Notes: generated by a model not told the origin, from the sequence alone. Shown: positions 30,115-64,000, numbered from the stretch's first letter. The stretch is 64,000 nucleotides of DNA from Candidatus Omnitrophota bacterium (GCA_030681595.1 JAUXSB010000008.1:89587-153586); one strand, 5' to 3'. Program-made: numbers and translations.

Positions 30115-30142
30115 TTGACATAGCCTCAAAATATGGTAACAT
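30115..30142 (+). promoter_or_regulatory. internal sigma70-like promoter TTGACA-N16-TAACAT
   Basis: TTGACA at 30115-30120 and TAACAT at 30137-30142. The first ATG (30146) would lie upstream of the predicted start site, so ATG 30170 is the more likely start codon. Confidence 0.45.
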
Positions 30143-30169
30143 TTTATGTATGTTTTTGAAAGGATCAAT

Positions 30170-31342: not shown

Positions 31343-31343
31343 T

Positions 31344-33497: not shown

Positions 33498-33513
33498 AAA
33501 ACGGGATTATTTT

Positions 33514-35719: not shown

Positions 35720-35728
35720 AGAAATTTT

Positions 35729-36777: not shown

Positions 36778-36779
36778 TT

Positions 36780-40395: not shown

Positions 40396-40401
40396 ATTAT
40401 T

Positions 40402-43280: not shown

Positions 43281-43297
43281 TTTAAAATACCTAATAT

Positions 43298-45813: not shown

Positions 45814-45841
45814 AATGTAATTTAATAATTTGGAGGCATAA

Positions 45842-48135: not shown

Positions 48136-49951
48136 GATTAGGTATTTTTTAAAGAGATACCCTGATAAGAAGGCAGTGATATTAGTAAATTTAATAAATC
48201 CGGCGCATAGACTGGATCATTACCTTTGCGCCATACCAAAAGATTCGACTTTTATTTTTTGGGGTATTGATATACCGCGTGGATTAAAAGAACTAGGCTT
48301 AAACATAAAGACATCCGAGGGTTATTTGGATGCTAACGATTATAAGGCCATCGATAGTTATGTATTCAGAGGCCTAAGCAAGTCTTGGTATTTGCATAAT
48401 AGCATTACTGATTATAAGGGAATTCATTTAGGTAAAATATTTGAATACGATTTCCAGAAATTTTTAGTGCCGAGAATAAAAAATTTAGAGATTTTGAGCA
48501 AGGTATGCAGCGCGGAAAAACCCGAGAAAATAATAGTGTTGGATGATTCCGGTGAATTATGGACCGCAGCCAAGTTATACGCAAAAATCGTTGATATCCC
48601 GGTGCTGACGGTAAAAATCAATAACACAAAAGTGGGATGTTTAGCACGGGTAAGCTCATATTTGAAACGCGCTCTTTCCCAGGCGTTAAGCGGTGTTATA
48701 AATTACGTATCATTAAAGCGGCTTTATCGGCAAGCGAATGCCAAACATACTTTGGTGGATGCAAAACTATTTAACTATTTTTCCGGGCATAATAGCGGCA
48801 TGGCAGTTATGCCGTCTATATTAGATGGCGGTTTTAATTATCGCTGGAAAATATTTTCTTTGCGGCAGCCTTATTTATCGTTTTATTCTTCCGGACGCGC
48901 GCGGTATCTAAAAGAATATAACGTTTACAGAAGGCGGTGGCATCTTTTATCGTCCGATAAAGGATTCCGGGATATTTTTACCTATAAAGGTATTCCTTTG
49001 TGGGATATCCTTCATTTAAAGCTTGCCGATTTTTTTCTAAAAGGTATTCCGCGTATAATTAGTAATTTTAAGCTATTGGATAATTTGTGCCAAAGGCTTG
49101 ACATAAAATCCGTGTTGTTGCGCAACGATGTAAAAGAACAGGAGCGAACAATGATTTTATCTCTGCGCCTGCATAAAATCCCTTCTTTGGTTATGCAGCA
49201 TGGCATATTGGCGGAATCAAACGGCCACAATGAATTATTGGCGGATAAATTTATCGCCTGGGGAAAAGCGTCAGCCGATTGGTATGAGAAGTTCGGAAAT
49301 TCAAAGGATAAATTTTTTATAGCGGGCAATCCGCGTTTTGATAAATTAAAAGATTGGAAGCCCGAGCTATCCAGGGATATTTTATATAAGAAACTTGGCA
49401 GGGATTTAAATAAAAAAACAATTTTATTTGCCACACAACAAGTTAATAAATTCTCTTCTTTCTGGACCGATGATTTATTCTGGGTGATGGCGGATGAGTT
49501 GTTAAAATGCATCAAAGGGAGGCCCGACATTCAGTTAATTATAAAATGTGACCCTTATGAAGATGTGCTGCCGTATAACAGGATAGCCGCTTATTATCCT
49601 GATGCGCAGGTAACAACTATCAGGAATTTTGATATTTATACGCTAATATACCATTCCGATCTAGTAATTACGCTTGATTCAACGGTGGGCCTAGAGGCTA
49701 TGCTTTTTGATAAACCGTTGATTACCTTTAATTTAACCACTAGGGAAGACAGGGTTCCTTATGCGCAAAAAGGCGCGGCAGTCGCTGTCTATAAGGATGA
49801 TACTTTGGGGGATGCGATTGAGCGGGTATTAAATGATAAAAATTTAGCCCTTCAGCTTAAAGAAGAGAGGAAAAAATTTATTTTGGAATACGCTAACAAT
49901 ATCGAAAACAAGGCCAGGGAAAAGATGCTAGCGATAGTCAGGGAAAGATGA
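48122..49951 (+). CDS. TagF/KpsS-like (Glyphos_transf / capsule-synthesis family) GT-B transferase, putative
   Basis: C-terminal half resembles CDP-glycerol glycerophosphotransferases (HGILAE...IAGNPRFDKL; ILFATQQ...). Low-confidence family call. Confidence 0.38.
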   Translation: MILNKIRYFLKRYPDKKAVILVNLINPAHRLDHYLCAIPKDSTFIFWGIDIPRGLKELGLNIKTSEGYLDANDYKAIDSYVFRGLSKSWYLHNSITDYKGIHLGKIFEYDFQKFLVPRIKNLEILSKVCSAEKPEKIIVLDDSGELWTAAKLYAKIVDIPVLTVKINNTKVGCLARVSSYLKRALSQALSGVINYVSLKRLYRQANAKHTLVDAKLFNYFSGHNSGMAVMPSILDGGFNYRWKIFSLRQPYLSFYSSGRARYLKEYNVYRRRWHLLSSDKGFRDIFTYKGIPLWDILHLKLADFFLKGIPRIISNFKLLDNLCQRLDIKSVLLRNDVKEQERTMILSLRLHKIPSLVMQHGILAESNGHNELLADKFIAWGKASADWYEKFGNSKDKFFIAGNPRFDKLKDWKPELSRDILYKKLGRDLNKKTILFATQQVNKFSSFWTDDLFWVMADELLKCIKGRPDIQLIIKCDPYEDVLPYNRIAAYYPDAQVTTIRNFDIYTLIYHSDLVITLDSTVGLEAMLFDKPLITFNLTTREDRVPYAQKGAAVAVYKDDTLGDAIERVLNDKNLALQLKEERKKFILEYANNIENKAREKMLAIVRER

Positions 49952-51369
49952 AAAAAGTCCTTCTTATAAATCCGCCTTCAGGTATGTACATAAGGGATGA
50001 CCGCTGTCAAGTCCCGGTTAAGGGCATTTCTTCTGCCCTGCGTACACCGCTGGATTTGGCGTATATGGCGGCTGTGCTGGAGCAATCAGGCAATCAATGT
50101 GTGATTAGAGATTATCCTGCGGAAAGGAAAAACTGGCAAGACCTTAAGGATGATTTAAAGCAAACTAAATTCGATATACTTATCATCAGCGTTACTACCC
50201 CTACGGTTTATATCGATATTATTGCTTGCGATATCGCCAAGGAGCTAAATCCGCAAATTGTGACTATTGCTAAGGGGGCGCATTTTGCCGCGCAAGATTT
50301 AGAAATTATTGAGCATTTTAAAAGTTTGGATATCGTTATACGCGGCGAATATGAGTTGGCGGTTGGTGAAATAGCCGATAAAAATGACCTTTCGGGTGTT
50401 TTAGGCATTACATACCGGATAAACGGCGCAATTAAAAAAAATCCCGATAGGCCATTCTTGGAAAATATGGACATCCTGCCTTTTCCCGCCCGGCATCTTT
50501 TAAATAACAGCCTATACACACGGCCGGATACGGGTGAAACGATGACCTCCATTCAGACAAACAGGGGTTGCCCTGCCAGATGCGTATACTGTTTGGTAAG
50601 CCTTGTATCCGGCAGAAAAATAAGGGCGAGGTCTGCGGAAAATATAGTTCGCGAAATGCAGGTTTGTAAAGAAAAGTTTGGAATAAAAAACTTTTATTTT
50701 AGGGCCGATACTTTTACCTGGGATAAAGAATGGATGATAGAAGTATGCAAAAATATCATAGAGCGAAAGCTTAATGTGAGCTGGGTATGTAACAGCCGGG
50801 TTGACACAATAGATAAAGAGCGCCTTGAGTGGTTAAAAAAGGCTGGTTGTTGGATGATAGGTTTTGGCATTGAAAGCGGCGATCAGGATATTTTAAATAA
50901 AATGAAAAAAGGTATAACATTAAAGCAGGCATTGGATTCCGTTTTCCTCTCTCGGCAATTCGGGATGAAGACATATTTATTTTGGGTCTTAGGCCTGCCG
51001 TGGGAAACCGAAGAATCTATTAGAAATACCATGAAATTCGCAAAAAAGATACAGGGCGATTTTGCGGAATTTCATATTGCTTATCCTTTTCCGGGGACCG
51101 AGTTTTACAATATTGGTTTAGAGAATAATTTATTCAAGGCCCAGGACCTTTATAAGGGCGATGTTAAGGCCGGGATAGTAGGGAGTTTTACTTTGCCAAA
51201 AGAAAAATTGCTGCAGTACCAGAAAGAGATAACCATGAGCTATTATTTGTCTTTTGGCAGGATTCTAAGATTGCTTAGCGGGGTTAAGTCGCCAAAGGTT
51301 TTGGCAAATTATATTACCAAAGGGTATTCTGTATTATTTAATCGCGGAGGAAGCGACAGCAATGGATGA
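49948..51369 (+). CDS. class B (B12-binding domain) radical SAM protein, cassette 1
   Basis: N-terminal B12-binding-like domain, TNRGCPARCVYC (Cx3Cx2C). Paralogous to 56109 and 62353. Confidence 0.75.
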   Translation: MKKVLLINPPSGMYIRDDRCQVPVKGISSALRTPLDLAYMAAVLEQSGNQCVIRDYPAERKNWQDLKDDLKQTKFDILIISVTTPTVYIDIIACDIAKELNPQIVTIAKGAHFAAQDLEIIEHFKSLDIVIRGEYELAVGEIADKNDLSGVLGITYRINGAIKKNPDRPFLENMDILPFPARHLLNNSLYTRPDTGETMTSIQTNRGCPARCVYCLVSLVSGRKIRARSAENIVREMQVCKEKFGIKNFYFRADTFTWDKEWMIEVCKNIIERKLNVSWVCNSRVDTIDKERLEWLKKAGCWMIGFGIESGDQDILNKMKKGITLKQALDSVFLSRQFGMKTYLFWVLGLPWETEESIRNTMKFAKKIQGDFAEFHIAYPFPGTEFYNIGLENNLFKAQDLYKGDVKAGIVGSFTLPKEKLLQYQKEITMSYYLSFGRILRLLSGVKSPKVLANYITKGYSVLFNRGGSDSNG

Positions 51370-52078
51370 GAGAAGTAAAGTTATAGTGGTCATGCCGGCG
51401 TATAACGCGGATAGGACCTTAAAAAAGACATACGAGGAAATACCCAAGGAATATGTCGATGAGATAATTTTAGTTGATGACGCCAGCCAAGATAATACGA
51501 TAGAGGTGGCTAAGAAGCTGGGAATTGAAGTCATTGCACACGAAAAGAACAAAGGCTACGGCGGCAACCAGAAGACATGTTATAAAAATGCTTTAGAAAG
51601 AGGTGCAGCAGTTATAGTCATGGTTCATCCTGATTATCAGTATGATCCTTCGTCCATACCGCAAATGATTAAGCCGATACTTGAGAAGAAGGTAGATATC
51701 ATGTTCGGCTCGCGGATGATTTATAAACGTGATGCGCTCAAAGGAGGCATGCCGTTATATAAGTTCGTCAGTAATATATTTTTAACAACACTGGAAAATA
51801 TCGTATTTAAGCGTTCTTTATCCGAATATCATACGGGCCTGCGCGCTTATAGCAGGAAGTTTTTGGAATCGATTGATTTTTGCGCTTTATCCGACGGGTT
51901 TGTCTTTGATACGGAGATAATTGCTGAAGCTACGAAATTAAAATTTAAAATCGGAGAAGTGCCGATAAAGACGCGCTATCTGGATGATTCTTCGTCGATA
52001 TCGTTTCGCGCCAGCGTAAAATACGGATTGAAAACTTTGAAGGTCCTATACGATTATATGATAAAGGCGAAGAAATAA
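51362..52078 (+). CDS. GT2 polyprenyl-phosphate sugar synthase (DPM1/ArnC/GtrB-like), cassette 1
   Basis: VVMPAYNA..., ILVDDASQDNT and DxD-type motifs; 238 aa soluble GT-A. Confidence 0.72.
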   Translation: MDERSKVIVVMPAYNADRTLKKTYEEIPKEYVDEIILVDDASQDNTIEVAKKLGIEVIAHEKNKGYGGNQKTCYKNALERGAAVIVMVHPDYQYDPSSIPQMIKPILEKKVDIMFGSRMIYKRDALKGGMPLYKFVSNIFLTTLENIVFKRSLSEYHTGLRAYSRKFLESIDFCALSDGFVFDTEIIAEATKLKFKIGEVPIKTRYLDDSSSISFRASVKYGLKTLKVLYDYMIKAKK

Positions 52079-52084
52079 TTTATT

Positions 52085-52741
52085 ATGCAGATTAGAATAC
52101 CAAAACGGAATAAGCACCCTGTTGTCGGGGATAATCTTACCAGGTTTTATCATTATCCGGTATTAAATTATTTTTTCTTGCGTCGGCTTACAATGACCTT
52201 AGGTTTTATGCCTGACGGAAAATTTGATTCAGTCCTGGAGATTGGTTTTGGAAGCGGGGTCTTTTTGCCTGAATTATCCAGGCGTTCAAAGCGTCTCTTT
52301 GGTTTAGATGTGCATGAACATATACTGAAAGTAAAGGATATGCTAGCTTGCGAAAATATCAAAGCTGAGTTAATAAAGGGGAGTATAGTGCACCTGCCTT
52401 ACAAAGACGCCTCATTTGATTGTGTAATCAGTATCGCGACATTAGAACATATAAACGAATTATCTTTAGCGATATCCGAAATAATACGCGTATTAAAAAA
52501 GGGCGGGCTTATGATACTGGGTTTTCCGGTAGAAAATAAGCTGTCTGATCTGTTATTGGTATTAACCGGAAGCGTGCGCGCTTACAAAAAGAAGTTAAAG
52601 GAAATCCACCCAAATAGCCATAATAAGATAATTAGCGAAATCAAGAGGCAATGCGGAAACGATATGAAGATAAGGCTCTTTCCGAATTTTTTGCCTTTGG
52701 ATTTAGCGTTATACTGTAGTTGTATGAGTAGAAAGGTTTAA
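52085..52741 (+). CDS. class I SAM-dependent methyltransferase
   Basis: VLEIGFGSGVF (motif I), LKKGGLMIL. Confidence 0.6.
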   Translation: MQIRIPKRNKHPVVGDNLTRFYHYPVLNYFFLRRLTMTLGFMPDGKFDSVLEIGFGSGVFLPELSRRSKRLFGLDVHEHILKVKDMLACENIKAELIKGSIVHLPYKDASFDCVISIATLEHINELSLAISEIIRVLKKGGLMILGFPVENKLSDLLLVLTGSVRAYKKKLKEIHPNSHNKIISEIKRQCGNDMKIRLFPNFLPLDLALYCSCMSRKV

Positions 52742-52746
52742 GTAAG

Positions 52747-54354
52747 ATGCGGAAAAATCGCACTGCACTGATATTCGGATTATTTTTTCTTTTGGGGATA
52801 GCCTCAAGAGTCATATTCGCGGTCAAAGATTTTACCCATTTGGATGAAGTTTTGTATGCCATCGGCTCCGTTGACTTTTCAGTAAAAAATGCTACGCCGC
52901 CTTCTCCGGGATATTTTCTCTACATAATGAGCGCAAGGTTCCTGAATATTTTTACCAATAACCCGCATACCTCGTTAATGGCCCTCAGTATTATTTATAG
53001 CGGCGCAATAGCCGGGCTGATTTATTATTTTGCGAAACTGCTAAAGAGTGAGGCAGTTGGGATTATTGCGGCGCTGCTTTTTTTAACCAGCCCTTTGTTT
53101 TGGTATAAAGGGGTGACGATATTTGGATACCTTAATTCGGGATTTTTTATATTATTAACCGCGTTATTGGGTTGGCGCATAGTTGCCGAAAAAAAGACAG
53201 GCCTATTATTCTGGTTTTCGCTGTCTTTTGCTATTTTGACCGGTGTCCGGCCACAAGAATTCCCCATAATGTTTCCGCTATATATTTTTGTCTTAGCCCA
53301 CTTAAATATTAGAGAGGCAATAAGGTCTATTTTTATTTTTGGCCTTACTTGCTGCGCGTGGCTTATTCCGCTTCTTGTTATGTCCGGCGGATTGAGAGAA
53401 TACATTTCGGTTTTGAAAGATGCAAGCGGTTATGTGGCTTATGATTCGATATTCGGCGGGAGTTTTACGGCGAAGCTAAATAACCATTTAGTAAGGATGG
53501 AAAGGTATTTTATCTGGGCATATTTTTTGGGGGTTATGCCTTTTATTTATTATATAGGCAAATTTTTTTATATTCCCAATCTTGTTAATGAAAAAAAAGC
53601 GCAGTTTTTCGCCGTATGGCTGTTTCCCGCGCTTATTTATAATGTTTTTATTCAGTTCGGCGAAATCGGCCACGGCATGAGCTGGGGGTTGGGATTTTTA
53701 ATAATTATAGCAGAAGCCGTTACGGTTATTTGCGACGACGTCTTAGGAGCATTGTCAGCCTTATCGCGTAAGGGTATAAGAATATCAAACGCTATTATCC
53801 AAAGCCCGTATGTAAGAAAAATAACTAGCGCACTTGTAGTGGGGCCGATAATTATTTTTAATTGTTTTATATTTTTTCATGATTTTGATAAAGACAAACA
53901 TGATTTCTACGATTTTCGTAAATACCGGCAGTTTAATTATAATGATGTGTTAAAAAAGAGCCGTTTTCTAAAATCCAAGGTTGATTTTATCAAGAAAAAT
54001 TTTAATCAAAAAAATATCGCGGTATTAGTAACGGGAACTTTTGGCCACCAGGTTATGTATCGCCTGGAGGAGGCGCTTATTATTCAGGCCGGCGTGATTA
54101 TGAGAGAAGACCATACCAGTTTTTCCACTTGGCAGAAATTAAAACCACGGTATTACGAAAACGCGAATGAGTTTGTTATCCCCGAAGGAATTCAATATTT
54201 AGTTCTATTTGACGATATATTTGTTCCATATTTCAAAAATACCCAAGATAATAATTGTTACAGGATAGATGATACGCATAAATTATTTGTGCATAAAGTA
54301 AGCCCGGGCGAGAGGCTTAATTTTGCCTATCAGGCGATAACAATTAACTACTGA
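52747..54354 (+). CDS. GT-C-fold polytopic membrane glycosyltransferase (PMT/ArnT-like), putative, cassette 1
   Basis: About 11 TM segments, first-loop HLDEV acidic motif, C-terminal soluble domain. Confidence 0.4.
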   Translation: MRKNRTALIFGLFFLLGIASRVIFAVKDFTHLDEVLYAIGSVDFSVKNATPPSPGYFLYIMSARFLNIFTNNPHTSLMALSIIYSGAIAGLIYYFAKLLKSEAVGIIAALLFLTSPLFWYKGVTIFGYLNSGFFILLTALLGWRIVAEKKTGLLFWFSLSFAILTGVRPQEFPIMFPLYIFVLAHLNIREAIRSIFIFGLTCCAWLIPLLVMSGGLREYISVLKDASGYVAYDSIFGGSFTAKLNNHLVRMERYFIWAYFLGVMPFIYYIGKFFYIPNLVNEKKAQFFAVWLFPALIYNVFIQFGEIGHGMSWGLGFLIIIAEAVTVICDDVLGALSALSRKGIRISNAIIQSPYVRKITSALVVGPIIIFNCFIFFHDFDKDKHDFYDFRKYRQFNYNDVLKKSRFLKSKVDFIKKNFNQKNIAVLVTGTFGHQVMYRLEEALIIQAGVIMREDHTSFSTWQKLKPRYYENANEFVIPEGIQYLVLFDDIFVPYFKNTQDNNCYRIDDTHKLFVHKVSPGERLNFAYQAITINY

Positions 54355-54360
54355 GTAAGA

Positions 54361-56103: not shown

Positions 56104-56108
56104 ATTTT

Positions 56109-57509: not shown

Positions 57510-57519
57510 CGGGTTTATC

Positions 57520-58254
57520 ATGAAACTATCATTAGTAATTCCAGCGCATAATGAAGAAACCTCTATTGGACGGGGCATCGAAGAATTGATAATTGAGCTG
57601 TCCAAAGAAGAAATCAGCTATGAGGTAATCGTGGTAAACGATAACAGCAGGGATAATACTCGTAAGGTTATTGAAGAACTGTCAAAAAAATATCCGGGAA
57701 TAAAGCTGATTAACCGTAATCCACCGAATGGTTTTGGCCGCGCCATAAGAGAGGGGCTAAACAATGTTACCGGAGACGTAGTGGGTATTGTGATGGGCGA
57801 TTTATCGGATGAGCCGAAAGATGTGGTCAGGTGTTTTCGCAAAATTCAGGAAGGTTACGATTGCGTATTTGGTTCCCGTTTTATGCGGGGCTCGAAAGTC
57901 AAAGATTATCCGTTAATTAAGCTCGTCATCAATCGTATCGCTAATCTGTTTATCCAAATCATGTTTCTTACCAAGGCCAATGATATCACCAACGCGTTTA
58001 AATTTTACAAGGCAGGCGTCATTAAGGCGGTTATGCCGCTGCAGTCGTTATATTTTAATATTACTGTTGAAATCCCGTTGAAGGCGATGGTGCGTGGTTT
58101 TTCCTACGTTCAAATACCGATTAATTGGTATGGCAGGGAAAGCGGCGTATCAAAATTAAGCGTAAGGCAAATGGGCAGGAAGTATCTTTTTATGGTCTTG
58201 TATGTTTGGCTGGAAAAGATGCTCTTGGCCGATGAAATAAACAGGCAAAAATGA
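57520..58254 (+). CDS. GT2 polyprenyl-phosphate sugar synthase (DPM1/ArnC-like), cassette 2
   Basis: SLVIPAHNEE and IVVNDNSRDNT. Stop overlaps the next ATG (ATGA). Confidence 0.72.
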   Translation: MKLSLVIPAHNEETSIGRGIEELIIELSKEEISYEVIVVNDNSRDNTRKVIEELSKKYPGIKLINRNPPNGFGRAIREGLNNVTGDVVGIVMGDLSDEPKDVVRCFRKIQEGYDCVFGSRFMRGSKVKDYPLIKLVINRIANLFIQIMFLTKANDITNAFKFYKAGVIKAVMPLQSLYFNITVEIPLKAMVRGFSYVQIPINWYGRESGVSKLSVRQMGRKYLFMVLYVWLEKMLLADEINRQK

Positions 58255-59795
58255 TTAAGATAAATAATATAAAAGCGAATTATTTTTTGCTGATTTTTTT
58301 AGCAGCAGTATCACTCAGGTCGGTAAATTTAACCCAGCCGTTACTGGAAGGGGCAGCGACACGTCAGGTTGAGAATGCGATGATCGCCCGTAATTTTTAT
58401 CAGGATAAGCTGGATATTTTTTATCCCTACCTTAATGATTTCGGGAAAGACCCAGCCTATCAAATGATTGAATTTCAGCTGATCCCGTTTTTAGGGGCCA
58501 TAATTTATCGCCTGCTGGGAGGGGTTTATGAGCCTGTTTTAAGGTGCATCATAATATTTTTCTTTGGATTAAGCACGGTATTCCTTTACAAGCTTCTAAA
58601 GTACTATTTCGATAGAACTTTAGCCCTTTGCGCGGTATTTGTTTTTTCTTTCAGCCCGATCAGCATTTACCTGGGTAGGGCTTTTCATTATGAAATGCCG
58701 ATGTTATTTTTTATTTTAGCGTCCCTTTATTATTTTTCTTTATGGATGGATCGTAAAAAGCGTATTTATTTATTTATTTCCGCTCTTTGCTGCAGCGTAG
58801 CATTATTATTAAAGGTAATAAATTTTTATGTGATATTTATTCTGTTATTCTTGGCGGCAGAAAAATTTAGAGGAAAAATATTTAAGAAATTAGATTTATA
58901 TATTTTTGCGGGGATAGTTTTTCTTTTTGTTGTCCCTTGGTATATGCATGCGCGCAGCGTTATGGTTAGATATCCGAATATGTATTCATTTTATTATAAT
59001 GACACTTTTGGTTTTATGTGGAAGATGATGAAGTTTTGGTTATCCAACCCGTTATTTTATAAAATAAATTTTGACAATCTGGTTACTTATACGCTTACGC
59101 CGTTAGGGTTTGGCCTGGCAATTGCCGGATTTTTTATGAAATCCGAAAACAGGAACGACCGGTTGATCTATGCTTGGTTATTGAGTGCCTGTATTTTATT
59201 TATCGCGGCCCCCGCGGAGGCAACACAAGGTTATTACCAAATTCACTTCCTCGTTCCCTGCAGCTTATTGATTGGGAAAGCGCTGACAAAATTAATAAAG
59301 TTAAATTTTTTTGGCAAAACTACCTTTGACAGAAAGTTATTTATTTGTGCTCTTTTACTAATTGTATTTGTTGTGGTAACCCGGTACTCTATCGGCCTTT
59401 ATCGGGTACCGGAAAGCCTGGGCAATGTTGTTAAAACCGGTAAAGTTGTGCAGTCCCTGACGAAAAATGAAGATTTGCTTATTGCTTCCGCGGGCAATAG
59501 CGCTGAGCTATTGTATTATTCTAACCGCAGTGGTTGGCCTTTTATGATAGATTTGGAGGCAAAGCGCCAGCAAGATAAGACCGACGGAACGGATGTTTCT
59601 AGGAAAATTTATGACCCGATTGAGGTTTTAGAGCGCCTAAGAAAAGAAGGGGCGGGTTATTTTGTCAGCGCGTCTAAGGAGAATGAATTTTTAAAGAACA
59701 AAATATTTTCCGAATACATGTTTGCGAATTACAAACTAATAAGGGAAACTCCGGATTATATCATTTTTGATCTGAGGGGTAAGGAAAAAAGATAA
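58251..59795 (+). CDS. GT-C-fold membrane glycosyltransferase (ArnT/PMT-like), cassette 2a
   Basis: About 12 TM segments and a C-terminal periplasmic-type domain. Confidence 0.42.
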   Translation: MIKINNIKANYFLLIFLAAVSLRSVNLTQPLLEGAATRQVENAMIARNFYQDKLDIFYPYLNDFGKDPAYQMIEFQLIPFLGAIIYRLLGGVYEPVLRCIIIFFFGLSTVFLYKLLKYYFDRTLALCAVFVFSFSPISIYLGRAFHYEMPMLFFILASLYYFSLWMDRKKRIYLFISALCCSVALLLKVINFYVIFILLFLAAEKFRGKIFKKLDLYIFAGIVFLFVVPWYMHARSVMVRYPNMYSFYYNDTFGFMWKMMKFWLSNPLFYKINFDNLVTYTLTPLGFGLAIAGFFMKSENRNDRLIYAWLLSACILFIAAPAEATQGYYQIHFLVPCSLLIGKALTKLIKLNFFGKTTFDRKLFICALLLIVFVVVTRYSIGLYRVPESLGNVVKTGKVVQSLTKNEDLLIASAGNSAELLYYSNRSGWPFMIDLEAKRQQDKTDGTDVSRKIYDPIEVLERLRKEGAGYFVSASKENEFLKNKIFSEYMFANYKLIRETPDYIIFDLRGKEKR

Positions 59796-59836
59796 CTAGC
59801 GCTATTAGGCATAGCAAGAAAGATAAAAAGGGCAAA

Positions 59837-61354
59837 ATGGGATTTAAGGGGAAAACATTGTTTTTTATAATTTTATTTATTGCTATTTCTTTGCGGCTCG
59901 TTAACTTGGATAAGGGGTATAGTTCAGATGAGGGCTGGCTTCTTAGGGCATCGGAAGTGAAGAGAAGCGAACTCATTCCTTTTTTAAGCAAGGGGCGGAG
60001 CGTCTATCCGCCGCTTTCGCCGTTTTTGTTAGGCCTCTGGCGTAATTTTAGCAATAATGAGATTTGGGTGCGAAGTTATTTCGTAAGTTTTGGTATCGCG
60101 TTATGCCTGCTTATTTATTTTTTAGGAAAAATTCTTAATGGCGCTAAATTTGGTTTATTGGTTTTTTTTATCGCGGCTGTTTCGCCTTTATTGATATGGG
60201 CTTCGCAGTTTATAAGAAGCTACGCGGATTCATCGTTTTGGGTTGTGCTTTCGGCGTTTTTTTTGGTAAAGCTGCTCAAGGATGGGTTTAGGTTTAACAA
60301 TATTTTGGGATATATCTTAGCCTCAACTGTTTCGCTTTATTCGTCGTATCTTAATATTATTATTTTATTTGCCTATAACCTGGCGGTAGCCGCGTTGTAT
60401 TTTCATAGAGGCATTAATTTCTTAAGGAAATGGTTTTATTTACAGCTTGTAATAGGGCTAATGTTTTTGCCATGCCTATCTTTACTTCTTAAGCAGTCTG
60501 CCTTGGCAACAGCCATTGATGTGAAATGGGGGGAGCGCGGATTCAATATCCTCGGCATAAATATAGGCTATTACGCGCGCGGCGTTGCCGCTCTTTTCGG
60601 GATGGACCCGGCTTTTTTAGCGCTTACGTCATTTAGGGATAAGTATAGTTTATGGCTTTTGTGCGCTTTAGCGGTATTAGCTTTCTCGATTATGATTTAT
60701 TTTTCTCTTAAAGGAATAAGTAACCTCTGTAAAATTTTCCAGGAAAAAAGAGTACCGCTATTTTTTCCTGCCACATCAATTCTCTCTCTATTGGTTTATC
60801 TTATCTTGGTCGAAGTAAAGCATTTTCCGTTACAGCCGGAATATCTTATCACGCCGCATATTTTATTTTTATTTGTCATTGCGGCAGCGCTATATTCTTC
60901 CAAAAATTCATCCAAAATAAACTATGTTGTATTGGGTGTTGTGTCTTTGGCTATGTCACTGAGGTTTAGTGAAGCGGTTAAGCCCGAATTTGATACTAAA
61001 AAATCTTCTATCTATTTATCTAAAAATGCAAAGCCCCAAGATTGTATTTTACTAATCAGAAATACTAATCATTACATAACGCCTGATAAATTTAGGCTAG
61101 TTAGCATGAGTAGCCTTTTAAATAAGAATAGCGATGCGGATATGTATGAGCCGCTTAGTGAACCCGCCCAAGATTTTCTTCTGAGTATTAAAGCGCAATA
61201 TGAAGATATCTGGTTTTACCGTTTGTACGGCAATGATGAAATATTAGGCGCTAATAAACTGATAATTGATTGGCTTTCTGTAAATGGTTATGCGATTGAT
61301 GGGATAGAGAAGTTAAGAAGGGTGGATATAATAAAATACACAAGGGAAGATTAA
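59837..61354 (+). CDS. GT-C-fold membrane glycosyltransferase (ArnT/PMT-like), cassette 2b
   Basis: First-loop SSDEGW (DE motif) and about 12 TM segments. Confidence 0.42.
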   Translation: MGFKGKTLFFIILFIAISLRLVNLDKGYSSDEGWLLRASEVKRSELIPFLSKGRSVYPPLSPFLLGLWRNFSNNEIWVRSYFVSFGIALCLLIYFLGKILNGAKFGLLVFFIAAVSPLLIWASQFIRSYADSSFWVVLSAFFLVKLLKDGFRFNNILGYILASTVSLYSSYLNIIILFAYNLAVAALYFHRGINFLRKWFYLQLVIGLMFLPCLSLLLKQSALATAIDVKWGERGFNILGINIGYYARGVAALFGMDPAFLALTSFRDKYSLWLLCALAVLAFSIMIYFSLKGISNLCKIFQEKRVPLFFPATSILSLLVYLILVEVKHFPLQPEYLITPHILFLFVIAAALYSSKNSSKINYVVLGVVSLAMSLRFSEAVKPEFDTKKSSIYLSKNAKPQDCILLIRNTNHYITPDKFRLVSMSSLLNKNSDADMYEPLSEPAQDFLLSIKAQYEDIWFYRLYGNDEILGANKLIIDWLSVNGYAIDGIEKLRRVDIIKYTRED

Positions 61355-61358
61355 AATT

Positions 61359-62345
61359 ATGAAAAAAGTATTAATAACAGGAGTGGCAGGTTTTGTTGGT
61401 TCAAATTTAGCAAAGGAACTATTGGATAGGGGCTATGAAGTTATCGGAATTGATAACTATTCTCAGGGGTTTAAGAGAAATATACAGGATTTATTTGCTA
61501 ATCAGGCTTTTAAATTTTACGAAGGGGATGTATGCGATAAAGATTTTTGCGATAGGCTCATAGGCGATGTGGGGGGAGTCTTTCATCTGGCGGCTTTTAA
61601 AATACCGCGTTACGGCGGCGCCTTAGATACATTGCATATAAACACAAGAGGAACAGAAAATATTTTAGAGGGAGCACGGAAAACTAAATGCAAGGTTGTT
61701 TTTGCTTCAACTTCCGATATTTATGGCAAAAACCCGGATATCCCGTTTAATGAGGGCTCTGACCTGGTCTTGGGGCAGACCAATATTAAGCGTTGGAGTT
61801 ACGCCGTTTCTAAAATATTTGATGAGCACTTATGTTATGCTTATCAGGAAAAATATGGGTTGCCTGTAACGATTGTTCGTTATTTTGGCGGCTACGGGCC
61901 GAATCAGAATATAACCTGGCGCGGCGGGCCGCAATCGGTTTTTATCGAATGCGCTTTAGGCAAAAAACCAATCCCTATTCACGGAAATGGAAAGCAAAGA
62001 AGAAGTTTTACTTATATTTCTGATATTATCAATGGTACAATTTTGGCTATGGAAAGGGATAAAACCATAGGCGAAGCATTTAATATCGGCAATGATAGGG
62101 AAATCGAAATAATAGAGTTGGCGAAAATGATTTGGCGCATGGTTAACCCGGATGGGGAGCCGCGGATAGAATTTATCGAATACGGCAGCTTTTCGGGAAA
62201 ATATGAAGATGTCCAGCGCCGTATACCGGATATAACTAAATCAAAACAATTATTAGGGTTTGAGGCCAGTGTTGAGTTGGAAGAAGGCCTTCCGTTGGCA
62301 ATCGATTGGCAAAAGCGGATCCCAAGCGAAGAGAAGGGTAGTTGA
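61359..62345 (+). CDS. NAD-dependent nucleotide-sugar epimerase/dehydratase (UXS/ArnA-decarboxylase-like SDR)
   Basis: TGVAGFVGSN, YAVSKI (YxxxK), VRYFGGYGPNQ. Confidence 0.72.
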   Translation: MKKVLITGVAGFVGSNLAKELLDRGYEVIGIDNYSQGFKRNIQDLFANQAFKFYEGDVCDKDFCDRLIGDVGGVFHLAAFKIPRYGGALDTLHINTRGTENILEGARKTKCKVVFASTSDIYGKNPDIPFNEGSDLVLGQTNIKRWSYAVSKIFDEHLCYAYQEKYGLPVTIVRYFGGYGPNQNITWRGGPQSVFIECALGKKPIPIHGNGKQRRSFTYISDIINGTILAMERDKTIGEAFNIGNDREIEIIELAKMIWRMVNPDGEPRIEFIEYGSFSGKYEDVQRRIPDITKSKQLLGFEASVELEEGLPLAIDWQKRIPSEEKGS

Positions 62346-62352
62346 TACGATT

Positions 62353-63768
62353 ATGGTAGATATTGTATTAGTTTATCCTCCTGTTTCTTTAGGCGGCAGG
62401 TATAAGAAAGTAGCCACAGGCCATGAGGTGGCCCCTCAGCCGCTAATTTACCTCGCGGCTTACTTACGCGAAAATAATTTTAAGCCTCAGATTATAGATT
62501 CAAACGCCTTAGGTTTGAACCATGAAGAAACGGTAAAAAAGATACTTAGCTATAATCCCCGCTATGTGGGGATAACTTCCCCGACTATGCTTATATCAGC
62601 CGCCGCTAAATTATCGCAAATGATAAAATGCCTAAATCCCGGCGTTGTTACGATAGTAGGCGGGCCGCATATCACAGCCGTTCCCGATGAGACAATGAAA
62701 ATGTATCCCGATATTGACATCGGTGTTCTTGGGGAGGGGGAGATTACGTTAGTGGAGTTGATCAATACATTAGATAAGAGGGCCGATATCGGTAAAGTTG
62801 ACGGGATAATTTTTAGGGATGGCGCGGAATTAAAAAAAACAGCCCAAAGGGAATTTATAAAAGATATAGATATTTTGCCTTTTCCGGCATGGGATATGTT
62901 GCCGGATCTCTTGGCGCATTATCAGCAGTCAGCCGCCAGAATAAACCGGATACCGAATATTTCTCTTGTTTCATCGCGCGGCTGCCCGTTTAAATGTATA
63001 TTTTGTGCCAGGAATGTATTTGGCAATACTACAAGGACGCACAGCGCGGGCTATGTCATCAATGAAATAAAGTATTTAATAAATAAATATAAAATTAAGA
63101 GTGCAAGCTTTGAGGATGAGAATTTTGTTGTTTATCGCAGCCGGCTGATAGAGTTTTGTAACCGCGTTATAGAAGAAAAAATCGATATAACTTGGGATTG
63201 CGCCTCCAACATAAATGCTATAAATCCGGAAATTTTATCTTTAATGAAAAAAGCTGGCTGCTGGCAGATTAATTACGGAATAGAGAGCGGATCGCAAAGA
63301 ATTTTAGATTTTATCAAAAAAGATATACGGCTAGAAAAAGTCAACGAAGCGCTTAAAATGACGAAGAACGCCGGCATAGTTACAAAGGGGTATTTTATCA
63401 TCGGCCATCCCACAGAAACACTCGAATCTATCCAGGAAACAATAGATTTCATAAAGAAAATAGATTTGGATGTATTCCAGATGTCTTTTATGATACCCCT
63501 GCCGGGTACGGAATTTTATTCTATCGCCAGCCGGTATGGGGAATTTAATAATGATTGGGATAACATGAATATCTGGACGCCGCTTTTTATACCCAGCGGA
63601 TTGACTCGGGCGGATCTGGAAAAAGAGTCGAAGAGGGCATACAGGGAATTTTATTTTCGAAGGGCGCCTATTGCGACATATTTAAAGCGTATGGCAAGAA
63701 GCACAAATTTCTTTAAATTTTTTAAGGACGGGTTTAAAATATTAAAATTTATCCTCGAGAATGACTGA
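62353..63768 (+). CDS. class B (B12-binding domain) radical SAM protein, cassette 3
   Basis: SSRGCPFKCIFC. Track ORF begins at 62260 and overlaps the upstream gene; ATG 62353 (MVDIVLVYPP) matches the paralog N-termini. Confidence 0.7.
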   Translation: MVDIVLVYPPVSLGGRYKKVATGHEVAPQPLIYLAAYLRENNFKPQIIDSNALGLNHEETVKKILSYNPRYVGITSPTMLISAAAKLSQMIKCLNPGVVTIVGGPHITAVPDETMKMYPDIDIGVLGEGEITLVELINTLDKRADIGKVDGIIFRDGAELKKTAQREFIKDIDILPFPAWDMLPDLLAHYQQSAARINRIPNISLVSSRGCPFKCIFCARNVFGNTTRTHSAGYVINEIKYLINKYKIKSASFEDENFVVYRSRLIEFCNRVIEEKIDITWDCASNINAINPEILSLMKKAGCWQINYGIESGSQRILDFIKKDIRLEKVNEALKMTKNAGIVTKGYFIIGHPTETLESIQETIDFIKKIDLDVFQMSFMIPLPGTEFYSIASRYGEFNNDWDNMNIWTPLFIPSGLTRADLEKESKRAYREFYFRRAPIATYLKRMARSTNFFKFFKDGFKILKFILEND

Positions 63769-64000
63769 TGATTATATTCATTGTACCGGTTTATAACGAA
63801 GCTCAGAATATTGTAAATTTACTTGCCAGGACCCATGGAGAGATGGCGCACAATGGTTTGCCGTATAAGATGATAGTTGTAAATGACGGTAGCACGGACG
63901 GGACCGAAAAAAAGGTTGAATCTTTAATGGGCAAGTTTAATATTGAAATTTGCAGCCATTACCCAAATAAAGGGGTCGGCGAAGCTTTTCGCGTTGGATT
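63768..64000 (+). CDS. GT2 polyprenyl-phosphate sugar synthase (DPM1-like), cassette 3, 3' partial
   Basis: MIIFIVPVYNEAQNI...MIVVNDGSTDGT. ATG overlaps the rSAM stop (TGATG). Runs off the window end. Confidence 0.6.
   Translation, partial: MIIFIVPVYNEAQNIVNLLARTHGEMAHNGLPYKMIVVNDGSTDGTEKKVESLMGKFNIEICSHYPNKGVGEAFRVG

Follow-up and report, generated by a model that had tools for sequence, protein, structure and literature searches.

Tandem cassettes of B12-binding radical SAM, GT2, and GT-C genes in a Candidatus Omnitrophota glycan island suggest tailoring of lipid-linked sugars

The window, by which we mean the whole 64,000-nucleotide stretch of Candidatus Omnitrophota DNA that was analyzed, contains between positions 49948 and 64000 three genes for B12-binding radical SAM (rSAM) enzymes, beginning at 49948, 56109, and 62353. 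Each is followed by a gene for a small, soluble GT2 glycosyltransferase (Table 1), as an earlier note on this DNA had reported; the coordinates it gave are correct, the domain content is as it described, and all cassette genes lie on the + strand. ORF calling and counts of transmembrane (TM) segments are crude. The start of rSAM3 is the ATG at 62353, in agreement with how the gene is called on a public contig of identical sequence; a mechanical ORF list places it at a TTG at 62260. Spacing between neighboring cassette genes ranges from -8 to +41 nt, because of which the genes probably constitute a single operon. rSAM1 shares 4 nt with the gene before it and 8 nt with GT2_1. A consensus scan detected promoter-like sites at a frequency not above that in shuffled sequences and 31 terminator-like sites (18.7 ± 4.5 in shuffles), none of which falls in the gaps between cassette genes.

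Table 1 Cassette genes in the window, with the evidence for each assignment
Gene	Position	Strand	Assignment and evidence
rSAM1	49948..51369	+	473 aa; Pfam PF02310 + PF04055; window copy nearest HpnJ
GT2_1	51362..52078	+	Dpm1/PpgS/AglJ-like, small, soluble; Glycos_transf_2 86.9 bits (Pfam)
Methyltransferase	52085..52741	+	Class I SAM-dependent methyltransferase, Methyltransf_11 (Pfam)
GT-C_1	52747..54354	+	Polytopic, PMT_2/TMEM260-like; own Pfam match weak (E 0.004)
Deacetylase-methyltransferase fusion	54361..56103	+	CE4 (NodB-type) deacetylase-like N-half, Methyltransf_11 C-half; Pfam and stand-alone homologues
rSAM2	56109..57509	+	466 aa; B12-binding domain and radical SAM enzyme (Pfam)
GT2_2	57520..58254	+	ArnC/PgfS/AglJ-like; Glycos_transf_2 97.2 bits (Pfam)
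GT-C_2a	58251..59795	+	GT39/GT83-like; PMT_2 53.2 and PMT 38.8 bits, both over Pfam gathering scores
GT-C_2b	59837..61354	+	Divergent GT-C; orthologues with PF13231 and predicted fold
SDR	61359..62345	+	Nucleotide-sugar dehydratase, decarboxylase, or epimerase; Pfam Epimerase and GDP_Man_Dehyd
rSAM3	62353..63768	+	471 aa; B12-binding domain and radical SAM enzyme (Pfam)
GT2_3	63768..64000	+	ArnC/PpgS-like; Glycos_transf_2 43.1 bits on 77 aa (Pfam); cut by window end

The earlier note described three tandem paralogous cassettes. The units are indeed mutually homologous, but they are more than simple triplets and diverged long ago. Cassette 1 additionally contains the Methyltransf_11 gene and the deacetylase-methyltransferase fusion, and the SDR gene lies directly before rSAM3. 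Pairwise identity between cassettes is 31–32% for the rSAMs and 25–33% for the GT2s, while the GT-C proteins are barely alignable, and each rSAM has nearer relatives in other phyla than among the copies of its own locus. By these sequence comparisons, the three cassettes are ancient paralogues with no recent duplication. In a relative that is 94% identical (L003), cassette 3 continues with the GT2 gene followed by genes for a CN-hydrolase, a WbuX-like amidotransferase, and a flippase-like membrane protein.

The GT2 proteins had been likened to DPM1 and ArnC, and their database matches agree. The best NCBIfam matches across the GT2s are AglJ, PpgS, dolichyl-P hexose transferase, ArnC, and PgfS, every one of them below its cut-off. 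GT2_1 scores 85 bits against AglJ and has Pyrococcus DPMS (5MLZ; E = 2.6e-8) and ArnC as its best solved relatives; GT2_2 scores 71.6, 70, and 65.6 bits against PgfS, AglJ, and ArnC, respectively. The truncated GT2_3 has a 263-amino acid orthologue in L003 (87% identical over 77 amino acids) that matches ArnC best. The window GT2s, all of which lack a membrane anchor, belong by family to the polyprenyl-phosphate sugar synthase type.

The products of the genes at 52747, 58251, and 59837 are GT-C transferases, as had been proposed for the polytopic proteins. Among 44 sampled homologues of GT-C_1, PMT_2 is found in 43 and a TMEM260-like domain in 31; D33 is invariant (alignment A5), and a hydropathy count gives eight hydrophobic segments. 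In addition to its PMT_2 and PMT matches, GT-C_2a has an Agl23-like match of 44.6 bits (cut-off 126). GT-C_2b itself has no Pfam match; its orthologues (50–54% identity), one of which is named GT39, contain PF13231. Nearly all structures matched by its AlphaFold2 model (pLDDT 84.9, pTM 0.83) are GT-C; the top 40 Foldseek matches in the PDB are all GT-C enzymes, comprising STT3, ArnT, ALG9/ALG12/ALG3, Pmt4, Pmt1/Pmt2, DPY19, PglB, AglB, AftA, AftD, and Emb. D31 and E32 of GT-C_2b are invariant.

The recurrence of an rSAM gene within this unit, to which the earlier note drew attention, is conserved across phyla. Set 1 contained one locus per GTDB species, with 44 genomes encoding a close rSAM (170 bits or more when compared with the window rSAMs) and a comparison group of 35 genomes encoding only weaker B12-rSAMs. 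A Dpm1-like GT2 gene lies within 4 kb in 25 of the 44 close-rSAM genomes and in 2 of the 35 distant-rSAM genomes (Fisher p = 9e-7). The corresponding numbers for a polytopic protein (400 or more amino acids and 7 or more TM segments, no farther away than 5 kb) are 31/44 and 14/35, and for both partners together 20/44 and 2/35 (Fisher p = 6e-5). No GT2 gene is detectable within this 4-kb distance in about half of set 1, for which short contigs are one reason. PMT_2 was matched by 29 of the 55 polytopic proteins scanned (52 neighbors and the three window proteins); PMT, STT3, YfhO, PTPS_related, and DUF2079 are matched by others. Set 2, which is independent, was drawn from metagenomes and consists of loci of rSAM1-type relatives, 31 of which have 2 kb or more on both flanks. 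GT2 genes are present at 23 of these 31 loci, polytopic proteins at 20, and one or the other at 28; an additional B12-rSAM gene at 16 of the 31 indicates that tandem multi-cassette arrays are common. The immediate neighbors of related rSAMs (n = 98) repeat the window's gene set: GT2 accounts for 18, Methyltransf_11 is the second commonest family with 10, and PMT_2 and Polysacc_deac_1 follow with 7 and 4. The association is not universal, as close rSAM1 homologues at L099 and L104–L106 (41–47% identity) have unrelated neighbors. The linkage of rSAM, GT2, and GT-C genes is nonetheless beyond chance, and the module spans bacterial and archaeal phyla, with numerous uncultured organisms among its carriers.

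Several related loci without a GT2 gene (L101, L102, L103, L108, L115, L133, and the cut locus L119) contain a UbiA-family gene 0–360 nt from the rSAM gene on the same strand. The profile of this family matches the decaprenyl-phosphate phosphoribosyltransferase 8J8J over its full length with 183 bits; the next UbiA enzyme scores 48 bits. The UbiA-family gene appears to be a non-homologous replacement of the GT2 gene at these loci. Such a substitution ties the rSAM to polyprenyl-phosphate sugars, whichever enzyme produces them.

These features suggest a model in which each cassette builds a monosaccharide donor on a lipid, modifies it, and sends it across the membrane, with rSAM tailoring preceding GT-C transfer; we give this model a somewhat better than even chance. 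The island's nucleotide-sugar enzymes, the SDR among them, would provide an activated sugar, and the soluble GT2, whose family assignment is firmer than its presumed substrate, would load it onto polyprenyl phosphate at the cytoplasmic face. The adjoining and translationally coupled rSAM would then cleave SAM to generate a 5'-deoxyadenosyl radical that takes a hydrogen from the lipid-linked sugar, allowing a modification beyond the reach of ordinary enzymes, which could be addition of a C-methyl group from methylcobalamin or a rearrangement or deoxygenation of the HpnJ/AprD4 type. In cassette 1, the class I methyltransferase and the deacetylase-methyltransferase may add tailoring at the N- or O-level. 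The donor would be flipped across the membrane, for which the flippase-like protein encoded 3' of cassette 3 in L003 is a candidate, and a GT-C protein of the PMT_2/TMEM260 type, as fold and family indicate, would attach the modified sugar to an acceptor at the surface, which may be a glycan, protein, or lipid. Three cassettes would yield three distinct decorations. True HpnJ, in the same part of the rSAM tree and with a gene order like that of the window, offers a precedent for this model. Alternatively, the rSAM could act on a nucleotide sugar, on the carrier lipid, or on the acceptor.

Three-component extracytoplasmic glycosylation systems (GtrA/GtrB/Gtr*, ArnC/ArnE-F/ArnT, CsbB/YfhO) likewise place a polyprenyl-phosphate monosaccharide synthase beside a GT-C protein; this synthase is of the GT2 type in the window and of the UbiA type at some related loci. 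These systems provide precedents for modification of the lipid-linked sugar, namely deformylation by ArnD, deacetylation by NaxD, and epimerization by DprE1/E2; ArnD and NaxD, too, tailor polyprenyl-phosphate sugars before transfer. In mycobacteria, PpgS (Rv3631), Rv3632, and a GT-C protein provide the galactosamine substituent of arabinogalactan. The PpgS pathway and the Francisella FlmF2/NaxD/FlmK pathway produce a polyprenyl-P-N-acetylhexosamine, which loses its acetyl group while still on the lipid and is then passed on by a GT-C protein. PpgS is a soluble GT2 like GT2_1, which scores 78 bits against the PpgS model (cut-off 370), and a Lawsonia cluster contains DUF2304 genes beside a GT2 gene, comparable to Rv3632 beside PpgS. 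Unlike the window cassettes, neither pathway includes a radical SAM enzyme. To our knowledge, no described three-component system does, and the rSAM is the part that is not in described GT2/flippase/GT-C systems. The cassettes differ further in their anchorless GT2s, in their tandem arrays of old paralogues, and in the absence of flippase genes (GtrA, MATE, or ArnE/F) inside the window's cassettes. DprE1/E2 are an established case of modification of polyprenyl-phosphate sugars ahead of GT-C transfer, and a further example of three-component glycosylation is provided by the PPPRS/MATE/GT136 pentofuranose systems (Kelly et al. 2024, PMC11127046). The word "radical" is absent from that paper, and a targeted full-text literature search found no description of the rSAM, GT2, and GT-C combination, in line with the earlier note, which likewise knew of no such described system.

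That note took the three rSAMs to be class B methylcobalamin-dependent methyltransferases, so that the transferred unit would be a C-methylated (branched) sugar. We regard this as a tentative possibility on the unlikely side. The domain architecture is that of MgmA, TokK, TsrM, CysS, Fom3, GenK, and PhpK: all three rSAMs retain the CxxxCxxC motif, pass the Radical_SAM gathering score, and exceed the Pfam cut-off of 32.1 bits for B12-binding (35.7, 43.9, and 68.3 bits for rSAM1, rSAM2, and rSAM3). Methylases are the majority of characterized B12-rSAMs (PMC12931638), and the C-methylase MgmA, a B12-dependent enzyme (9CCB; PMC11796369, PMC12931638), is one of the two nearest solved structures of the window rSAMs (69–90 bits), being the nearest of rSAM2 (89.7 bits, then AprD4 with 79.5) and the second nearest of rSAM3 (69.4 bits). 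The P-methylase models PhpK and Sden_1168 score 139–162 bits for rSAM2 and rSAM3, but no methylase family cut-off in NCBIfam is reached by any window rSAM. The top NCBIfam matches are instead the non-methylating HpnJ (256, 200, and 217 bits for rSAM1, rSAM2, and rSAM3, far under the cut-off of 577.6) and BchE (152, 178, and 209 bits). The nearest solved structure of rSAM1 (118 bits) and rSAM3 (89.9 bits) is AprD4 (6FD2), which does not bind cobalamin (PMC12931638); the AprD4 model in NCBIfam gives 100–134 bits (cut-off 500). Structures of TokK, TsrM, CysS, and OxsB are much more distant (E = 1e-13 to 4e-4 for the first three), and the window rSAMs do not classify among the class B methylases; membership in the Fom3, GenK, and CysS clades, with which the earlier note proposed a comparison, is not supported. 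Class I methyltransferases, moreover, already accompany the module. Because sequence and structure cannot separate non-methylating from alkylating B12-rSAMs, according to a 2026 review (PMC12931638), C-methylation is one option rather than the inference.

Another reading, which we consider quite doubtful, has the rSAM act on a lipid-linked amino sugar once this has been deacetylated: it would contract or rearrange the ring, as HpnJ or Cds might, or deoxygenate it as AprD4 does, and the head group would end up carbocyclic or deoxy. AprD4 dehydrates a sugar diol in apramycin C3-deoxygenation and does not methylate. This rSAM has a Rossmann-like domain at its N terminus and works on the ring of an amino sugar, but its substrate is a soluble pseudodisaccharide. 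HpnJ, the nearest curated family of all three rSAMs, is thought to act on lipid-linked glucosamine, although its reaction is itself inferred solely from genetics (PMC13459092). Scores against the HpnJ model fall stepwise from true HpnJ (843 and 613 bits) through the rSAM of the Lawsonia glycan cluster (376) to rSAM1, L052, and L073 (253–269). In the rSAM tree, true HpnJ groups with rSAM1 (bootstrap 51%), and HpnJ, the Lawsonia rSAM, and L015_8 form a group at 100%; the 48-member clade of all three window rSAMs and HpnJ appears in 0 of 100 bootstraps, the deep nodes being unresolved. A RiPP-context rSAM of Clostridium estertheticum is also about 30% identical, so similarity at that level is not function-specific. 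The gene order hpnJ-hpnI(GT2)-hpnL(flippase-like) parallels rSAM, GT2, and flippase-like protein here, and the CE4 deacetylase in cassette 1 and in a Parcubacteria module mirrors the HpnK deacetylase. However, HpnK is YdjC-type rather than CE4-type, and the CE4 domain of cassette 1 is fused to a methyltransferase (Methyltransf_11 at residues 383–474, with a weak Polysacc_deac_1 match). Stand-alone homologues of its N-terminal half (42–58% identity) contain PF01522 and are named polysaccharide deacetylase; in both of two contexts examined, the gene directly follows one for a methyltransferase, and the surrounding glycan cluster contains no rSAM, so this pair exists independently. HpnI belongs to another GT2 subfamily that the Dpm1-like model misses, the hpn genes have nothing corresponding to the GT-C partners, and there are no hopanoid genes in the window. 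A carbocyclic phosphate ester would also be a poor GT-C donor, because it lacks anomeric leaving-group chemistry. rSAM2, which matches more than 6000 proteins at E ≤ 1e-20, belongs to a clade (bootstrap 90%) that it shares with Elusimicrobia, Patescibacteria, Woesearchaeota, and Nanoarchaeota, and the same clade of rSAMs is plentiful in Patescibacteria and DPANN archaea, which are not known as hopanoid producers.

It is distinctly improbable that the rSAM uses a soluble nucleotide sugar ahead of the GT2 step, or the completed glycan or protein once transfer has taken place, and is only co-regulated with GT2 and GT-C. The locus is a long glycan operon rich in nucleotide-sugar enzymes, SDR and aminotransferase genes are likewise frequent neighbors, and AprD4 and GenK-type enzymes use soluble sugars. 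Against this stand the overlap between the rSAM and GT2 genes at their start and stop codons and an adjacency, often 0–200 nt, that is specific to two non-homologous types of polyprenyl-phosphate sugar synthase and to GT-C. Action after export is impossible, since the rSAM needs cytoplasmic SAM and reductant.

HpnI/HpnJ and Cds work on membrane lipids (PMC13459092), and cassette 3 of L003, with its flippase-like protein, has no GT-C gene in the 3.7 kb downstream of rSAM3. A GT2 that glycosylates a membrane lipid, with the rSAM remodeling a hopanoid- or calditol-like head group and the GT-C genes serving a separate function, is nevertheless very unlikely: the GT2s resemble DPMS, ArnC, and PpgS rather than HpnI, GT-C proteins directly adjoin in many phyla, and the partner of the UbiA type is homologous to a polyprenyl-phosphate phosphoribosyltransferase. 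That unrelated genes came together by chance is extremely improbable, even though glycan islands are gene-dense and GT2-rich and certain close rSAM homologues lack these neighbors, given the strong enrichment over distant B12-rSAMs (p = 9e-7), its replication in the second data set, and the spread of the module across bacterial and archaeal phyla.

Returning to the model of a tailored lipid-linked donor, the SDR is probably the donor supplier for cassette 3. Its NCBIfam scores, all under the respective cut-offs (LegB 147 bits; UDP-4-keto-pentose/UDP-xylose synthase 141.7, cut-off 294; ArnA 122.8, cut-off 777), weaken the earlier suggestion of an Ara4N or pentose donor, as does the rest of the island, in which the product of the gene at 30410 is nearest dTDP-glucose dehydratase and the aminotransferase is nearest PseC and LegC. 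A suggested phosphonate link is without support: the gene for PEP mutase is 14 kb upstream, and the 25 Pfam families most often found in the immediate neighbors of sampled related loci include none from a phosphonate pathway. An SDR resembling that of cassette 3 is also present in the Parcubacteria module.

The last 14 kb of the window are filled by twelve genes on the + strand, with a spacing of −8 to +41 nt between them. The genes, their domains and their order agree with the earlier note, which described three cassettes. Each cassette contains a gene for a protein of 466–473 amino acids with B12-binding and radical SAM domains (rSAM1–3), directly followed by a gene for a GT2 protein (GT2_1–3). 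The units are mutually homologous, with identities of 31–32% among the rSAM proteins and 25–33% among the GT2 proteins. In a distance tree, each of the three rSAM proteins falls into a separate subgroup and has its nearer kin in other phyla; by these comparisons the cassettes appear to be old paralogues and not recent tandem duplicates. ORF calls and transmembrane (TM) counts here and below are crude. Scans for Rfam families, tRNAs, tandem repeats, promoters and terminators returned nothing bearing on the cassettes.

Genes of the three cassettes, in window coordinates
Gene	Coordinates	Strand	Description
rSAM1	49948-51369	+	Cassette 1; Pfam B12-binding + Radical_SAM
GT2_1	51362-52078	+	Cassette 1; Glycos_transf_2, directly after rSAM1
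52085	52085	+	Cassette 1, after GT2_1; Methyltransf_11 protein
52747	52747	+	Cassette 1, after GT2_1; polytopic protein
54361	54361	+	Cassette 1, after GT2_1; fusion protein of 580 aa
rSAM2	56109-57509	+	Cassette 2; Pfam B12-binding + Radical_SAM
GT2_2	57520-58254	+	Cassette 2; Glycos_transf_2, directly after rSAM2
58251	58251	+	Cassette 2, after GT2_2; polytopic protein
59837	59837	+	Cassette 2, after GT2_2; polytopic protein
61359	61359	+	SDR gene, upstream of rSAM3
rSAM3	62353-63768	+	Cassette 3; Pfam B12-binding + Radical_SAM
GT2_3	63768 onwards, cut by window end	+	Cassette 3; Glycos_transf_2; 263 aa in L003, a 94%-identical relative

The three rSAM proteins match the radical SAM family PF04055 with 80–96 bits, and the cysteines of the CxxxCxxC motif (C205, C209 and C212 in rSAM2) are invariant in the window copies and 11 homologues. 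Scores against the B12-binding family PF02310 are 35.7, 43.9 and 68.3 bits for rSAM1, rSAM2 and rSAM3, respectively (gathering score 32.1). The proteins have the broad class B architecture (B12-binding plus radical SAM) and may bind cobalamin. The best curated family for all three is HpnJ (TIGR03471) with 256, 200 and 217 bits, which do not reach the cut-off of 577.6; BchE comes second (152–209 bits). Every methylase model scores under HpnJ and no methylase cut-off is reached: 116–127 bits for the MgmA family (cut-off 360), 114–162 for PhpK (600), 111–150 for Sden_1168 (575), and 77–90 for HpnR (650). The nearest solved structures are AprD4 and 9CCB, with TokK, TsrM, CysS and OxsB far more remote. 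AprD4 is a non-methylating diol dehydratase that works on an amino-sugar, and these scores and structures do not bear out membership in a Fom3/GenK/CysS-type methylase clade, a comparison that the earlier note had proposed. C-methylation itself is a possible reaction that the classification does not specifically support, since HpnJ and BchE outscore the methylases and AprD4 is among the nearest structures. Assignment to non-methylating families, which had been named as evidence against the proposal, was borne out by half. Two papers identify 9CCB as MgmA, the C-methylase of a glutamine in MCR. AprD4, a close relative, has a B12-binding-type domain yet binds no B12, and non-methylating B12-rSAMs show no features that separate them from alkylating ones, according to a 2026 review (PMC12931638).

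True HpnJ proteins are 29–30% identical to rSAM1 across 87% of its length, the same level as the window paralogues. Scores against the HpnJ model fall in steps, from 843 and 613 bits for true HpnJ to 376 for an rSAM from a glycan cluster on a Lawsonia intracellularis plasmid, 253–269 for rSAM1 and its nearest relatives, and 180–217 for the remaining members. In a neighbour-joining tree of 121 sequences (100 bootstraps), HpnJ, an HpnJ equivalog (L015_8) and the Lawsonia protein group together at 100%, and their union with rSAM1 and its relatives has 51% support; support for the rSAM2 group is 90%, and deeper nodes are not resolved. A 48-member clade of GT2-associated proteins was recovered in none of the 100 bootstraps, so we relied on score classes and neighbour-gene counts instead. 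An rSAM from a RiPP context in Clostridium estertheticum is also at 31% identity, so similarity of this level does not fix function. More than 6000 proteins match the rSAM2 family by itself at E<=1e-20, and names in the rSAM family are now generic or wrong automatic ones, such as "anaerobic Mg-protoporphyrin cyclase". Apparently long fusion proteins at three related loci (L014, L040 and L062) are start-codon artefacts; only that at L026 (9977-12454) looks real, an 825-aa protein that is seemingly a B12-rSAM fused to a second CxxxCxxC radical SAM domain. The equivalog comes from L015, a locus of an uncultured Pseudomonadales MAG with five B12-rSAM genes, one of them above the HpnJ equivalog cut-off (613 bits); this protein does not adjoin an HpnI-type GT2.

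The GT2 proteins (238–263 aa) match PF00535. Their best NCBIfam models are AglJ, PpgS, dolichyl-phosphate hexose transferase, ArnC and PgfS, at 36–85 bits against cut-offs of 325–529, none of which is reached, and the only solved relatives found were Pyrococcus dolichol-phosphate mannose synthase (DPMS, 5MLZ) and ArnC. All of these best matches belong to one functional group, in agreement, at family level, with the proposed DPM1/ArnC-like identity; the proteins are family-level relatives of polyprenyl-phosphate sugar synthases and not equivalogs. They are without a strongly hydrophobic run of at least three segments, and this absence of a membrane anchor is shared with proteins of the PpgS and Ppm1 type.

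The conservation of this arrangement was assessed in two sets of related loci. Set 1 comprised 80 loci, one per GTDB species, encoding relatives of rSAM2. The scan used the rSAM2-family alignment; an alignment of the three window rSAM proteins and their homologues was too divergent. All six-frame ORFs were scored against the window proteins and a model built from Dpm1-like GT2 neighbours. In 44 genomes an rSAM reached 170 bits or more with one of the window copies (close class), whereas 35 had weaker B12-rSAMs only. A Dpm1-like GT2 gene lay within 4 kb in 25 of the 44 close-class genomes (within 200 nt in 15) but in only 2 of the 35 others (Fisher p = 9e-7), many of the contigs counted being short. 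Polytopic proteins (>=400 aa, >=7 TM segments, <=5 kb) were encoded in 31/44 and 14/35 genomes, respectively, and both partners together in 20/44 and 2/35. PMT_2 was present in 29 of 55 polytopic proteins scanned (52 neighbours and the three window proteins); the rest include PMT, STT3, YfhO, PTPS_related and DUF2079, and 12 of the 55 are Wzx-like (Polysacc_synt). The two genes on each side of the rSAM in 26 low-GC loci (n=98) most often encoded GT2 (18), Methyltransf_11 (10), another rSAM (9, six with a SPASM domain), PMT_2 (7), GT1 (6) and Polysacc_deac_1 (4), which is the composition of the window cassettes.

Set 2 was independent: an rSAM1-type alignment retrieved 80 metagenome loci, and the counts were made on the 31 that have 2 kb or more on each side. 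GT2 occurred in 23, polytopic proteins in 20 and either in 28; a further B12-rSAM lay within 5 kb in 16, so tandem multi-cassette arrays are common. The linkage of B12-rSAM genes to genes for polyprenyl-phosphate sugar synthases and GT-C proteins is real and widespread. Among the carriers are Omnitrophota, Elusimicrobia, Patescibacteria, Planctomycetota (anammox), Acidobacteriota (Vicinamibacterales), Actinomycetes, Desulfobacteraceae, SAR324, Woese- and Nanoarchaeota, and Bathyarchaeia. For several cassette proteins the best named homologues are from Omnitrophota, the phylum to which the source organism probably belongs; the identical contig occurs in a metagenome run only. A few rSAM1 homologues that are close (L099, L104-L106) have an unrelated gene context.

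The most telling result for a link between the rSAM proteins and lipid-linked sugars is a replacement of GT2. Seven set 2 loci (L101, L102, L103, L108, L115, L133 and the cut L119) are GT2-less, and in each a UbiA-family gene lies 0–360 nt from the rSAM gene on the same strand. A profile of the UbiA proteins matched decaprenyl-phosphate phosphoribosyltransferase (8J8J) over its full length with 183 bits, compared with 48 for the next UbiA enzyme. Decaprenyl-phosphate phosphoribosyltransferase uses PRPP to form a polyprenyl-phosphate sugar and shares no homology with GT2. One rSAM group thus adjoins two unrelated kinds of polyprenyl-phosphate sugar synthase, which suggests that the rSAM works on or with the lipid-linked sugar.

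The polytopic proteins 52747, 58251 and 59837 have the GT-C fold, as the earlier note had proposed. They and their L003 orthologues contain 6–9 strongly hydrophobic segments apiece. PMT_2 and PMT are above threshold in 58251. Although 59837 itself has no Pfam match, PF13231 occurs in its orthologues (50–54% identity), one of which bears the name GT39. PDB sequence searches with profiles of 59837 and 52747 and with the N-terminal half of 54361 gave nothing useful, so a fold search and the annotation of homologues were used to settle these three. For an AlphaFold2 model of 59837 built from 18 sequences (pLDDT 84.9, pTM 0.83), the 40 best Foldseek matches in the PDB were GT-C enzymes, namely STT3, ArnT, ALG9/ALG12/ALG3, Pmt4, Pmt1/Pmt2, DPY19, PglB, AglB, AftA, AftD and Emb, and nearly all structures that the model matched were of this kind. 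For 52747, which has 1661 representative homologues, PMT_2 was found in 43 of 44 sampled and the TMEM260-like O-mannosyltransferase family in 31 of 44. Acidic residues are invariant in the 59837 family (D31 and E32) and in the 52747 family (D33); they are candidates for the conserved acidic residue that GT-C enzymes have in the first extracytoplasmic loop. Comparison of the three proteins by hhalign gave weak in-register matches only (E 4e-4, probability 33%).

The N-terminal half of 54361, a deacetylase-methyltransferase fusion, is a CE4 polysaccharide deacetylase, stand-alone homologues of which (42–58% identity) carry PF01522. In both contexts examined, the stand-alone deacetylase gene directly follows a methyltransferase gene in a glycan cluster without rSAM, so the pair is a separate tailoring unit recruited by cassette 1; an HpnK analogue that defines the module was rejected on the same ground. 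At these loci (L090:6183-8005 and L091:6213-7987, in unrelated glycan clusters), a Methyltransf_11 gene directly precedes the CE4 deacetylase gene, whereas the two are fused in reverse order in Omnitrophota. L090, L091 and the Omnitrophota fusion suggest a conserved pair that may deacetylate and then methylate.

Several known systems were weighed as models. The hpn system resembles the cassettes in layout: in Paraburkholderia graminis, hpnJ, hpnI (GT2) and hpnL (flippase-like) follow one another, an order mirrored in L003, where the third rSAM and GT2 genes are followed by one for a flippase-like TIGR00374/LPG_synthase_TM protein. It was rejected because the HpnJ cut-off was not reached, the GT2 proteins are not of the HpnI type, and the hopanoid genes shc, hpnH, hpnI and hpnK were absent among ORFs scanned at 17.3–64 kb of the window. 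The Arn system was rejected as well, and the Ara4N/pentose-type donor that the earlier note had considered plausible is a weak reading. The nucleotide-sugar SDR 61359 has no firm assignment and scored 147 bits against LegB, 141.7 against UDP-4-keto-pentose/UDP-xylose synthase and 122.8 against ArnA (cut-off 777), all below cut-offs; 31344 scored 214 against ArnB (cut-off 631) and is nearer PseC; and none of the three GT-C proteins had a match to ArnT in NCBIfam. The phosphonate (Fom3-like) variant was abandoned, the PEP mutase gene being 14 kb from the cassettes and no phosphonate-pathway family being among the commonest rSAM neighbours in the related loci sampled. Three-component systems of GT2 (or PPPRS), flippase and GT-C share the working plan of the cassettes, which add a radical SAM tailoring enzyme; the word "radical" does not occur in an account of such systems (PMC11127046). 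No dedicated flippase gene (GtrA, ArnE/F, MATE or Wzx-like) was found inside the window cassettes. The B12-rSAM plus GT2/GT-C combination is apparently undescribed, as our literature search found neither a description of it nor an experimental study of any module member.

From the enzyme families, folds and conserved neighbourhoods observed, we infer substrates, an order of steps, chemistry and an acceptor. GT2 would load a sugar on polyprenyl phosphate, and the coupled rSAM would modify this lipid-linked sugar via hydrogen abstraction. Class I methyltransferases and the deacetylase could tailor it further and, after flipping, a GT-C protein of the PMT_2/TMEM260 type would put the sugar on an extracytoplasmic acceptor. 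Polyprenyl-phosphate sugars and GT-C glycosylation shape O antigens, lipid A, teichoic acids, mycobacterial walls and glycoproteins. To our knowledge, the known tailoring of lipid-linked donors is limited to epimerisation and deacylation; ArnD and NaxD are precedents for tailoring at this stage. DprE1/E2 also act at the lipid-linked stage (PMC11127046), and HpnJ is a precedent for a B12-rSAM on a lipid-linked amino-sugar, its reaction being deduced from genetics (PMC13459092). A radical SAM step would bring chemistry at unactivated carbons to the lipid-linked stage and would predict unusual sugars on lineages with almost unknown envelopes. The linkage also offers thousands of B12-rSAM proteins a function that can be tested, and it sets the HpnJ reaction, which is still unproven, in a genomic context.

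A broader reading, which we consider improbable, is that the B12-rSAM group containing HpnJ is a general family of lipid-linked-sugar remodelers, the products of which GT-C proteins install on the cell surface; the family would perform radical rearrangements of polyprenyl-phosphate sugars, for example contraction of the ring to a carbocycle, deoxygenation or the formation of C-C bonds. If so, HpnJ would be a hopanoid-specialised offshoot of a much larger, older glycan-tailoring family, and ultra-small uncultured lineages (Patescibacteria, DPANN, Omnitrophota, Elusimicrobia) would be particularly rich in a class of non-canonical surface sugars.

A related module also occurs in a cultured and annotated organism, the pathogen Lawsonia intracellularis, whose plasmid 1 (L087, NC_008012.1, 27 kb) has a cluster, genes LI_RS06575 to LI_RS06630, with two Dpm1-like GT2 genes, galE, two DUF2304 genes, a SIS-domain gene, a third GT2, a second rSAM, five class I methyltransferases in all, a HAD-IIIA hydrolase and a GHMP kinase. 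Its first rSAM has the top HpnJ-model score outside true HpnJ (376 bits), and a DUF2142 membrane protein is encoded upstream on the other strand. SPASM-type radical SAM genes stand beside B12-rSAM homologues in L004, L007, L015, L022, L023, L064, L073 and L077 (6/98 immediate neighbours). A separate archaeal B12-rSAM group (L039, L046 and L048 from Thermoplasmata, including Oxyplasma and I-plasma, with L049 and L051) has no GT2 or GT-C neighbours. Thermoplasmata are a class rich in acidophiles, and the group could be relatives of calditol synthase (Cds).

In L003 (18438-20592), the third GT2 and the flippase-like protein are separated by genes for a nitrilase-like CN-hydrolase and for a WbuX N-acetyl sugar amidotransferase, the latter with 229 bits and thus above its cut-off; the sugar of cassette 3 may therefore receive an acetamidino-type modification. 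Elsewhere in the island, 34061-35719 encodes a fusion of PEP mutase with a nucleotidyltransferase domain. Next come a split TPP enzyme (35729-36217 and 36214-36777), which by its domain resembles phosphonopyruvate decarboxylase, a CDP-alcohol phosphatidyltransferase-like gene and another NTP_transf_3 gene; together, 34061-36777 and 39604-41151 look like a pathway for phosphonate decoration of a glycan. The region 27685-37934 encodes a UDP-sugar 6-dehydrogenase, a GFO/IDH/MocA oxidoreductase, a DegT aminotransferase, a hexapeptide acetyltransferase and a UDP-GlcNAc 2-epimerase. By domain content, this set may represent a UDP-2,3-diacetamido-2,3-dideoxy-mannuronic acid (WbpA/B/E/D/I-type) pathway, to which the aminotransferase earlier called ArnB-like would then belong. 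Unusual fusions and enzymes occupy 42060-49951: an rSAM/SPASM protein (42060), a GT2-cytidylyltransferase fusion (43298), a LarA-like protein (44647), a methyltransferase (45842), a cytidylyltransferase-NeuB-SAF fusion (46513) and a 609-aa BFO_1060/"surface carbohydrate biosynthesis"-type protein (48122), the stop codon of which overlaps the rSAM1 start. The 1.2 kb between tRNA-Arg and tRNA-Lys (9990-11192) hold no long ORF; a 119-aa ORF there (10110-10469) is PilZ-like by eye, with RxxxR and D/NxSxxG-like motifs, and PilZ genes are also present at 25310 and 25801.
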